Shown here one piece after another: positions 19,506-22,233 of a stretch of 37,816 nucleotides of DNA. This stretch comes from a virus (Duplodnaviria > Heunggongvirae > Uroviricota > Caudoviricetes). The notes beneath the pieces are model-generated. The model saw only the letters and a program-made list of their open reading frames with translations, searched no databases and had not been told where the DNA came from. Position numbers and translations under genes: made by a program. Position 1 is the first letter of the stretch, and each line of letters starts with the position of its first letter. The stretch is taken from the IMG/VR virus record IMGVR_UViG_2563366922_000008, positions 1 to 37,816 of that record; one strand, 5' to 3'.

Positions 19506-19846
19506 AGCGTCTTTACCTTTTAGAAAGTGAGCCTGTCTCACAGAAAAGCCGCCCGAGAGAGGTCGCCACCTATAACGGCATTTCTCAGGCTCGCTTACTG
19601 AAAGGCTCTCGTTAATATGCGCGTGAGATGCGCTGTGAAATTCAGATATAAAAAGCCCCGCGAATGCGAGGCTAAATCCTGGTGTTTGTGATGACTGGCT
19701 CTTATCTCAACGCAGCCCCTTACCGCGCGCCAGATGCTCAATATCAAGCATCAGCAATGAGATGTTTAATCTGGATTCACTCCAGAAGTGATCACCACCC
19801 TGTCTACAGAGCCAAATGTGAAGGATGATGAGTAAAATTATCGCTA

Positions 19847-20314
19847 TCATCGAAGGCATTGCGTCCTGATATATTCCTGAAGCGTTCTCAGTGCTGTCTG
19901 GTCTCTGATGATTCCGTCCCGGATACCGAGAACGTTTCGTCCAGCAACTGGAGAGAGTTCGACGGTGGCATCATTGCCCATGCCGGAGGAGCTGGAGGTT
20001 TCGGCTGAGGATGGCACAGGGCATTTTCCTTTGACGAGCACCCGACCACCATTATCAAGCTTGCGCCGAAGAGCATCATTTTCAGCTTTCGCATCAGCTA
20101 ACTCCTTCGTGTATTTAGCATCGAGTGCATCAGCATCACGCTGGCGCTGTTGCATGTCAGTAATGGTGGCGTTCGCCTTCTCCAGTTCACTGGCCTTGTT
20201 ATCGCGCTGTTCTTTGTAGGCGATGGCGTTATCATGGTAATGGTTAACAGCCCATGACAGGCAGACGATGATGCAAATAACCAGAGCGGAGATAATCGCG
20301 GTTACTCTGCTCAT
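19847..20314 (-). CDS. Rz: Spanin inner-membrane subunit Rz (lambda-like)
   Basis: ATG at 20314 overlapping endolysin stop; [26 protein letters not shown]...[30 protein letters not shown] matches lambda Rz as recalled. Confidence 0.8.
19888..20094 (-). CDS. Rz1: Spanin outer-membrane lipoprotein Rz1, embedded in +1 frame of Rz
   Basis: [24 protein letters not shown]... with lipobox VVGC, Pro-rich, fully inside Rz as in lambda. Confidence 0.7.
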
Positions 20315-20814
20315 TGCTGCCCCCACAAACAGACTTCACGCTCAATCTCACGACGAGTCATCAGACCTTTCCATTGCTTACCGCCAGCGTATGTCCAGCG
20401 ACGTAGCTGATCACATGCGCCTTTGATATCGCCCTGGTTGATTTTGTGCAGAAGCGTCGATGTTCTGAAATTGCCAGCGCCCACGTTGTAGACGAACGAG
20501 TAAAGAGCGCCGCGCGTTGTTTCCGGTATATCGACTTTGATGTACGGGTTAATTTGTCTGGCGACCGTGGCAAGGTCTTTATTCAGGAGGGCTTTGCATT
20601 CTGCTTCGGTATACGTTTTACCGGGAATGATGTCTTTTCCGGTGTGCCCGTAACATACAGTCCATACACCAACTATGTCTTTGTAAGGATTATGTCTCAC
20701 ACCTTCCAGACCATCGTTACCACTCGGTCCAGTGATTAACACAGATGCTATAGCAATAGCCCCGCCACTTATCGCCGCTATTACGCTATTTCGTAGTGCC
20801 GGTGACATTGCCAT
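20311..20814 (-). CDS. SAR endolysin (T4-lysozyme-like muramidase with N-terminal signal-arrest-release domain)
   Basis: 167-aa ORF with Gly/Ala-rich weakly hydrophobic N-terminus ([23 protein letters not shown]) followed by LEG....Y.D..G.WT.CYGHTG lysozyme catalytic region; phage 21 R-type. Confidence 0.85.
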
Positions 20815-20989
20815 TCAATCTGTCCTCGCGCTCTTTGCGCTTGTAGTACCAGTTGATGCCAAATGTGCCGACAGTACAAAGAATACCAATAATGACAGCC
20901 CAGTCATTCAGGGAGAGAATGCCACCCATCGCAGTCAGTCCTCCGAAACTGTAACTGAACCATTCTCTGATTTTGTCCATACGGTACAT
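20786..20989 (-). CDS. Class II holin / pinholin-like protein with dual-start motif
   Basis: 67-aa [56 protein letters not shown]...; two TM segments; Met1-Tyr-Arg-Met4 dual start; AAGGGG RBS; overlaps endolysin start. Confidence 0.7.
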
Positions 20990-21282
20990 GCTCTACCCCT
21001 TCATTGAGGGGATTTGCTCTATTTAATTAGGAATAAGGTCGATTACTGATAGAACAAATCAAGGCTACTGTGTTTAGTAATCAGATTTGTTCGTGACCGA
21101 TATGCACGGGCAAAACGGCAGGAGGTTGTTAGCGCAACCTCTTGCCACCCGCTTTCACGAAGCCAGTCATTGAGCTGGTTTTCTTTTATGCAAAGCACAC
21201 CGCACCGTAGCCACAGCGGATAAGGTGATTATTTTGGTCTGTCTGGTATTTGGTTTGATGCGCTTTCAGAAAGGTCGTGCTT

Positions 21283-21321
21283 AAAACGCAAAAAGCCCCG
21301 AGCTATTAACTCAGGGCTTTA
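21283..21321 (-). terminator. tR'-like rho-independent terminator about 60 nt downstream of pR'
   Basis: Minus strand AAAGCCCUGAG-uuaauagc-UCGGGGCUUUUUGCGUUUU. Confidence 0.6.
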
Positions 21322-21353
21322 TTTAACGAGTGCATTTATCCATCGTTGAGTCA

Positions 21354-21382
21354 AATTTACCCAACTTTATTCAAAAAGTCAA
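21354..21382 (-). promoter_or_regulatory. Late promoter pR' (-35 TTGACT, 17-bp spacer, -10 TAAATT) with adjacent qut region
   Basis: Minus strand TTGACTTTTTGAATAAAGTTGGGTAAATTTGACTCAACGATGG matches lambda pR'/qut as recalled; directly downstream of Q. Confidence 0.6.
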
Positions 21383-21424
21383 TATTATGCCGTTAATATG
21401 TTGCCATCCGTGGCAATCATGCTG

Positions 21425-22048
21425 CTAACGTGTGACCGCATTCAAAATGTTGTCTGCGATTGACTCTTCTTTGTGGCATTGCACCACCAGAGCGTCATAC
21501 AGCGGCTTAACAGTGCGTGACCAGGTGGGTTGGGTAAGATTTGGGATTAGCATCGTCACAGCGCGATATGCGGCGCTTGCTGGCATCCTTGAATAGCCGA
21601 CACCTTTGCATCTTCCGCATTCTTTCTCAACAACTCTCCCCCACTGCTCTGTTTTTGCTATATCAACCGCACGGCCTGTACCGTGACAATCTCTGCATCT
21701 TGCGCCCGGCGTCGCGGCACTACGGCAATAATCCGCATAAGCGAATGTTGCGAGCACTTGCAGTACCTTTGCCTTAGTATTTCCTTCGAGCTTTGCCACA
21801 CCCCGGTATTTCCCCGATACCTTGTGTGCAAATTGCATCAGATAGTTGATAGCCTTTTGTTTGTCGTTCTGGCTGAGTTCGTGCTTACCGCAGAATGCAG
21901 CCATACCGAATCCGGCTTGTGATTGCGCCATCCCCATAGCAGCCATCACATCAGTACCGGAAAGAGAGTCAGAAGCCGTAGCCCGTGGTGAGTCGCTCAT
22001 CATCGGGCTTTTTGGCGAATGAAATTTAGCTACGCTTTCGAGTCTCAT
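21425..22048 (-). CDS. Q: Late antiterminator Q (lambda-type)
   Basis: 207-aa ORF MRLESVAKFHSPKSPMMSDSPRATASDSLSGTDVMAAMGMAQSQAGFGMAAFCGKHELSQNDKQKAINYL... matches lambda Q as recalled. Confidence 0.9.
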   Translation of the reverse strand: MRLESVAKFHSPKSPMMSDSPRATASDSLSGTDVMAAMGMAQSQAGFGMAAFCGKHELSQNDKQKAINYLMQFAHKVSGKYRGVAKLEGNTKAKVLQVLATFAYADYCRSAATPGARCRDCHGTGRAVDIAKTEQWGRVVEKECGRCKGVGYSRMPASAAYRAVTMLIPNLTQPTWSRTVKPLYDALVVQCHKEESIADNILNAVTR

Positions 22049-22233
22049 CGTCTTCCTCTCTTGCCCTGTTTGACCATCAGGACGCCGTTAACTATTACGT
22101 GACGTTCGCCTTTGCTGTCTCGGTTGTACTTGAGCACCGTTCCTCTTGCGCAGGAAAGCATCCTCGCCACTTCGGTCTGATTGCCTCGTGTCTGTATAAG
22201 AAGCTCTGGTATCGTTTGAATTGTGGCGTTCAT
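22045..22233 (-). CDS. ninH: NinH-like protein
   Basis: 62-aa ORF MNATIQTIPELLIQTRGNQTEVARMLSCARGTVLKYNRDSKGERHVIVNGVLMV resembles lambda NinH; overlaps Q start. Confidence 0.65.
   Translation of the reverse strand: MNATIQTIPELLIQTRGNQTEVARMLSCARGTVLKYNRDSKGERHVIVNGVLMVKQGKRGRR

Follow-up and report, generated by a model that had tools for sequence, protein, structure and literature searches.

The late leader of phage lambda is represented by the 6S RNA, which runs from 44587 to about 44780 of the lambda genome and is 194 nt long. According to PMC7547250 (its refs 51–54), the late promoters of phages 21, phi80, 82 and P22 give rise to short RNAs that are regulated by antitermination, and for the short late-leader RNA of P22 the same paper cites Roberts et al. 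1976. The late antiterminators lambda Q and P22 gp23 have been reported to be interchangeable (PMC8022706). The elements of this switch are annotated in the P22 record NC_002371.2, which marks "P late or P R'" at 37852–37880, a lambda-like qut site, and the late RNA 5' nucleotide at 37887; positions 37917–37945, corresponding to +31 to +59, are labelled 't late or tR'; antiterminated by gene 23 protein'. The record of Salmonella phage Emek (JQ806763) marks a qut site at the homologous position, together with a 'rho-independent terminator'.

Here we describe the corresponding region of a P22-like prophage, contained in a stretch of 37,816 nucleotides that was analysed as a whole and is called the window below. 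The nearest phage records are HZ41, with 96.8% identity over 74% of a 24-kb query, and IME10. We conclude that the region is very probably the late-operon control region of this P22-like prophage, in the common short-leader form.

The region lies between a lambda-type Q gene and the lysis cassette

The promoter and terminator described here are located directly 3' of the Q gene and 5' of the lysis cassette, and all features of the region lie on the minus strand. The late antiterminator gene Q (21425–22048) encodes a protein of 207 amino acids and was assigned to the lambda type from its open reading frame, its identity with lambda Q at 206 of 207 residues (99.5%) and its match to the Pfam family PF03589 (Antiterm, E = 1.3e-57). 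The first late gene (20786–20989) encodes a holin of 67 amino acids, as seen from the list of open reading frames and from its match to PHROG phrog_20 (E = 3.5e-25). It is overlapped by an open reading frame of 167 amino acids (20311–20814), and in Emek the homologues of the two are annotated as holin and lysin.

A second strong intrinsic terminator is found further downstream, at 19654–19673 of the minus strand, beyond the lysis cassette but still within the late operon. It consists of AGCCTCGCATTCGCGGGGC followed by TTTTTATATCT, and the tail of its U-tract, TTTTTATATCTG, does not differ from that of lambda tR'. In Emek, too, a terminator is annotated 3' of the Rz gene.

The late promoter and the start of the transcript match lambda

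The late promoter pR' was located at 21354–21382, with a −35 hexamer TTGACT (21382–21377) that begins 42 bases after the Q stop codon, a 17-nt spacer and a −10 hexamer TAAATT (21359–21354). The consensus scan returned three promoter-like sites where 4.5 were expected, so that the pattern match alone is at chance level; the promoter is credible because of its identity with lambda pR'. Alignment showed that both hexamers are the same in lambda and that the spacer differs at two positions. The same two mismatches are present in HK phages, whose records read 'similar to lambda Qut site with 2bp mismatch'. As judged from the sequence, the spacer carries a putative Q-binding element.

We infer that transcription starts at 21347, the first A of AACGAT, a position that was set from the P22 annotation 'similar to phage lambda P late RNA 5' nt'. 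With this numbering, the hexamer AACGAT at +1 to +6 resembles a −10 element and is a putative pause-inducing element, identical in lambda. The stretch from +1 to +23 (21325–21347), which is the transcribed part of qut, was defined by alignment with lambda: positions +1 to +8 (AACGATGG) show no differences, and 19 of the 23 positions match in the MAFFT alignment. Counted over the 90 nt from the Q stop codon to +13 in each phage, 85 positions are shared. Thus, the proposal of an earlier note on this DNA, that the pR' hexamers and the initial transcribed region match those of lambda, is borne out. The stretch from +1 to +23 is the last one that the window and lambda have in common before the sequences part; the functional qut site ends roughly at this point.

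An intrinsic terminator follows the late promoter at short distance

The earlier note had further claimed, for positions 21283–21382, that a strong terminator follows pR' by about 60 nt. This is confirmed at the positions given: we found an intrinsic terminator, composed of a hairpin and a U-tract, between pR' and the first late gene. The hairpin of this tR', AAAGCCCTGAGTT-AAT-AGCTCGGGGCTTT, occupies 21292–21320 (+28 to +56) and comprises 13 pairs, six of them G–C, closed by a loop of 3 nt; directly 3' of it the sequence reads UUUUUGCGUUUU. Its assignment rests on the terminator scan, on folding and on the annotated homologues in P22 and Emek. The U-tract TTTTTGCGTTTT at 21280–21291 is the expected release zone. 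This tract is interrupted (UUUUU GCG UUUU), and the efficiency of termination could therefore fall below 100%.

Because the hairpin occupies +28 to +56 and is followed by the U-tract, release is predicted at about +58 to +65. Combined with the start placed by homology, this gives a predicted constitutive late-leader RNA of about 58–65 nt (21283–21347), which is about one third of the length of the lambda 6S RNA. The expectation that the leader transcript would be far shorter than 6S thus holds for the predicted RNA, at 58–65 nt versus 194 nt. An RNA of 62 nt folds at −23.3 kcal/mol (z = −4.5), a stability that was reached by 0 of 200 dinucleotide shuffles, and a version of 73 nt gave z = −4.1. 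The layout of the leader is simple, with qut from +1 to +23, four A/U-rich bases and then the terminator; from its sequence it looks like a minimal version of a late leader. A search of positions 20500–22100 on both strands against Rfam at a permissive E-value matched no family, and a query with the hairpin sequence found none containing it among the papers searched.

The terminator and spacer form a different allele from that of lambda

The interval that differs from lambda extends from 21324 to 21163 (about +24 to +185, 162 nt) and stands in place of lambda 44610–45014 (405 nt). The alignment of the Q–S interval that the earlier note had called for showed that the two are not collinear, and the objection that a collinear alignment would have raised falls away. 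Within the core of the interval (156 nt versus 398 nt in lambda), 131 positions matched, a number that shuffled sequences also gave (131.5 ± 3.2). When the lambda segment was searched against the whole window with blastn, no counterpart was found (best E = 0.5).

In lambda, this place is taken by the 6S body, the lambda tR' and the region of LPR2, whereas the window has the short-distance tR' and a spacer. The lambda tR' is a long hairpin (44724–44779) that is absent from the window, and the tR' of the window lies about 135 nt nearer to the start. Although MAFFT placed the two terminators opposite each other, we do not claim that they are homologous, since the replaced interval is at chance level and blastn returned nothing. 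For the same reasons, the predicted RNA does not belong with the lambda 6S RNA: beyond +1 to +23 its similarity is at chance level and has no blastn match. The spacer (21163–21279), also at chance-level similarity and with no lambda counterpart by blastn, is of the P22/HK type, with 95–99% identity across HK and mEp phages. On sequence comparison, tR' and spacer together are a different allele, non-homologous to that of lambda.

Similarity to lambda resumes before the holin gene, as the earlier note had stated. The pre-holin leader (20990–21162), aligned with lambda from 45015 onwards, is identical at 164 of the 172 positions compared from 21161 on (about 95%). It reaches to the start of the holin gene (20989) and includes a hairpin just before that start. 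The motif GACCTTTCTGAAAGCG, located just 3' of tR' (21262–21277, minus strand), recurs as GGCTTCGTGAAAGCGG at 21147–21162 of the same strand, and this second copy marks the point at which homology with lambda resumes. The first copy is weakly tied to the lambda boundary by blastn (29 nt, 79%). The recurring motif may be a junction-associated repeat.

Two further features of this part of the leader were recorded. Within the 172-nt leader shared with lambda, at 21109–21146 of the minus strand, there is a second hairpin, GGCAAGAGGTT-GCGCTAAC-AACCTCCTGCC, with GTTTTGCC 3' of it. One of its stem pairs is uncompensated, being A–C in the window and in Emek and G–A in HK544, versus G–C in lambda, and the terminator scan did not call this hairpin. 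An open reading frame of 51 amino acids with a GTG start (21043–21198, minus strand) spans spacer and lambda-like leader and matches phrog_22751, a family of unknown function (E = 2.9e-39). Hypothetical proteins are annotated within its interval in the HK140, mEp234 and Sf101 records. Most of this frame overlaps sequence shared with lambda, whose record has no gene there. The frame may thus be no more than a conserved stretch of non-coding leader, and we do not count it as part of the late-control region.

The published probes for the lambda leader RNAs could be placed on the same alignment. The 6S probe (lambda 44657–44691) and the LPR2 probe (44816–44850) both fall within the lambda segment that is missing from the window (44610–45014, or 811–1215 of our extract L002). 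The hairpin at 21146–21109 is therefore ruled out as a counterpart of LPR2, its probe mapping inside the absent segment. Since a phage with a lambda-type Q lacks both 6S and LPR2, any functions that these RNAs have cannot be general to such phages.

The short leader is the standard one of P22- and HK-type phages

The whole interval from Q to holin is closely matched in known phages, with 98.0% identity in Emek, 96.9% in HK544, 95.1% in HK022 and 94.8% in HK97; HK544, HK140, HK106, HK542, HK022, mEp234, mEpX1, mEp213 and Sf101 are identical to it at 95–97%. P22 itself aligns with the window from +3 to +106 at 89.8%. The 146 nt that are specific to this leader were found in 99 phage records, as against 36 for the lambda 6S body, most of the latter being lambda or laboratory derivatives; duplicate entries in GenBank and RefSeq inflate both counts. 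Of 5,426 complete E. coli genomes, 267 contain the whole 201-nt stretch from promoter to terminator and 292 the hairpin (about 5%); E. coli ECONIH6, for example, is 100% identical over 21200–21400. In most HK and mEp records, and in one E. coli RefSeq record that was inspected, the terminator is unmarked.

These comparisons identify the leader of the window, at the level of its sequence, as the standard late leader of P22-, HK97- and HK022-type phages, one that is already annotated, and the longer 6S leader of lambda is the less common version in phage records. The earlier note had seen here a replacement within the leader. Relative to lambda this stands, with 162 nt in place of 405 nt and similarity at chance level, but the arrangement is no oddity, being the standard P22/HK leader. 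The related phage IME10 (NC_019501), which covers 53% of the 24-kb query at 97.1% identity, has the lambda 6S body at its late-leader locus (97.8% identical). As IME10 carries this body in spite of its close relationship, two leader alleles segregate among close relatives.

The same hairpin follows unrelated Q genes

We found the exact 28-nt hairpin AGCCCTGAGTTAATAGCTCGGGGCTTTT (21291–21318 of the window, minus strand) in at least 119 IMG/VR contigs. Among the 119 matches listed, about 70 have an initial transcribed region of the lambda/P22 type immediately before the hairpin; in the other matches listed, the upstream flanks form about 20 unrelated classes and the downstream flanks many unrelated ones. 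The nearest upstream gene was Q-like in all 98 loci with enough flank among the matches listed. In 80 of these it belonged to PF03589, either of the 207-aa lambda type or of a 254–259-aa type, in 14 to phrog_753 ("anti-termination protein Q-like"), in three it was an HNH–PF06530 fusion and in one a DUF1133/PF06530 protein. Three or four unrelated Q families thus precede the identical hairpin.

The surroundings of the hairpin vary in other ways as well. In the loci L066 and L107, a long leader similar to lambda 6S ends in the 28-nt hairpin and not in the tR' of lambda. In Hafnia phage Meifeng, the hairpin is followed by two tRNA genes and then by the holin gene, and in Pantoea phage AH01 it is found after the endolysin gene. 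The hairpin behaves like a tR' cassette that is common to different phages and bounded by mosaic junctions to either side. This pattern agrees with the idea that polymerase modified by Q shows no specificity for a given terminator.

We also compared naturally occurring variants of the hairpin. The upper stem and loop read GAGTTTAACCGCTC in P22, GCA-GCGA-TGC in ES18, GTAGCCCCAGTGTTGC in L129 and GAGGTTCACGCCTC in L139. The variants of P22, L129, L139 and others all fold stably, at −11 to −19.5 kcal/mol, and the ES18 leader also folds as a stable hairpin. Such tolerance of changes in the loop and upper stem suits a plain terminator better than an RNA that acts through its specific sequence. The covariation score was 0.118, compared with 0.073 for shuffled alignments, 18 of 500 of which reached it, in an alignment with upper stems of unequal length and a basal stem fixed by the search pattern. 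With the basal stem so fixed, eight of the ten basal-helix pairs were invariant and one changed on both sides (AU to CG or UG). That covariation is weak is in part because the search pattern fixed the basal stem.

Proposed mechanism and alternative readings

In the reading that we favour, RNA polymerase would initiate constitutively at pR' (21347, minus strand) and pause near +16/+17, where sigma-70 is expected to re-bind the −10-like AACGAT. As long as Q is lacking, transcription would end at tR' and release the RNA of about 60 nt. Once Q has accumulated, it would bind the Q-binding element in the spacer and load onto the paused polymerase, which would thereby become resistant to terminators and read through tR' into the holin, endolysin, Rz and morphogenesis genes. 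We infer the pausing, the termination in vivo and the Q-dependent read-through from lambda and P22; at the homologous P22 site, read-through is known on the strength of its annotation and of the literature.

Several other readings of the hairpin were weighed, some of them in addition to a role as late terminator. Terminator-like sites of the loose pattern are common (nine in 4 kb, with 3.9 expected), which is what one would cite for a chance hairpin with no role and a true late terminator elsewhere. We find this hardly credible, as tR' has the longest stem in that 4-kb scan, none of the 200 shuffles folded as stably, its position after Q genes is kept in hundreds of genomes and it coincides with the annotated tR' of P22. 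Read on the plus strand, the hairpin is GCCCCGAGCTATTAACTCAGGGC followed by TTTATTTAA, with an A-tract preceding it, and it might also act as a bidirectional terminator or insulator against antisense or read-in transcription that runs from the side of the lysis genes towards Q. Against this speak the scan, which called no terminator on the plus strand, the lack of an evident opposing promoter nearby and the orientation of the neighbouring genes, all on the minus strand; literature support for it was not found, and we regard such a function as very improbable. A trans-acting role of the RNA beyond that of a by-product of antitermination, as an Hfq-binding regulator in the lysogen comparable to StxS, appears to us nearly as improbable. 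It would have precedents in StxS, produced from the pR'/tR' region of Stx phages, which binds Hfq, represses Stx1 and activates RpoS (PMC7547250), and in the recovery of lambda 6S RNA and LPR2 on Hfq (bioRxiv 10.1101/2024.10.31.621285). The predicted RNA also has a G+C-rich 3' hairpin with a U tail, preceded by the A/U-rich AAAUAAA, and would be constitutive in about 5% of complete E. coli genomes. However, qut takes up +1 to +23 and the terminator +28 to +65, which leaves about 4 nt free for a seed, and the U-run counts just five before GCG. The leader has no similarity to that of 933W, no Rfam match and no paper in which its hairpin sequence was found, and the variants tolerated in upper stem and loop are those that a plain terminator predicts.

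A different question is why the 28-nt hairpin is so widely identical. It could be kept as a short homology linker for recombination between lambdoid phages, reflecting the shuffling of modules and not selection for a termination sequence. This is an evolutionary addition that is compatible with the terminator reading, and we hold it to be unlikely, though deserving of more weight than the readings above. The identical 28-mer occurs with unrelated flanks on either side in the contigs described above (at least 119) and behind three or four unrelated Q families; ES18 has the same downstream flank as P22 and a different upstream leader, which places a junction in or at the hairpin; and the close relative IME10 has the lambda 6S body instead. 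On the other hand, a search by exact sequence makes every match identical, and the apparent conservation of the hairpin is therefore partly circular. The distribution would look the same if one efficient terminator had spread independently, or if these E. coli and Salmonella prophages shared a recent ancestor. That the RNA of about 60 nt is functional, for example in association with Hfq, or that the invariant 28-nt hairpin is a linker under selection, is in our estimate improbable. The predicted RNA would be constitutive in about 5% of the E. coli sequenced and also in many Salmonella; a linker of this kind would allow phages whose Q proteins are unrelated to exchange late-operon modules. We retain the late terminator of a P22-like prophage as the preferred reading of the hairpin.

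Comparison with known late leaders

StxS of the Stx phages is likewise derived from a lambdoid prophage whose late promoter is subject to antitermination and gives a short constitutive RNA, such as is predicted in the present case, and it originates at the corresponding genomic position. StxS is a 74-nt 3' fragment of a 258-nt transcript, with Hfq binding and targets that have been demonstrated. The Q family of 933W differs from that of the window, and its late leader has no sequence similarity to the one described here. In the 933W record, a possible rho-independent terminator, AACCCGCCGATGCGCGGGTTTTTTT, is annotated at 20726–20748 (1227–1249 of our extract L188), about 30 nt after the putative pR' and well ahead of the terminator expected to end the 258-nt StxS precursor; its sequence is unrelated to the hairpin of the window. 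Phages 82, 21 and phi80 have different Q families and Q-binding sites, and we liken them to the window by the short RNAs cited for them, not by sequence comparison.

In lambda, Q, pR' and qut are alike up to +23 and the regulatory logic is presumably the same, but the terminator and the spacer that follows it are of another allele. The late control region of P22, together with that of HK97, HK022, Emek and the HK and mEp phages, is also among the closest described systems and has the same type of Q, the same promoter and the same sequence from +1 to +27, and a terminator that is alike in position and basal stem. The upper stem and loop of that terminator differ (GAGTTTAACCGCTC in P22, GAGTTAATAGCTC in the window), the P22 spacer diverges past about +106, and P22 gp13 and gp19 are of another type than the holin and endolysin of the window. 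The late-gene switch of this prophage is thus the well-known P22-type arrangement. The 194-nt 6S leader of lambda is not the norm, and annotators can place pR', qut and tR' with confidence in this family of P22-like prophages.
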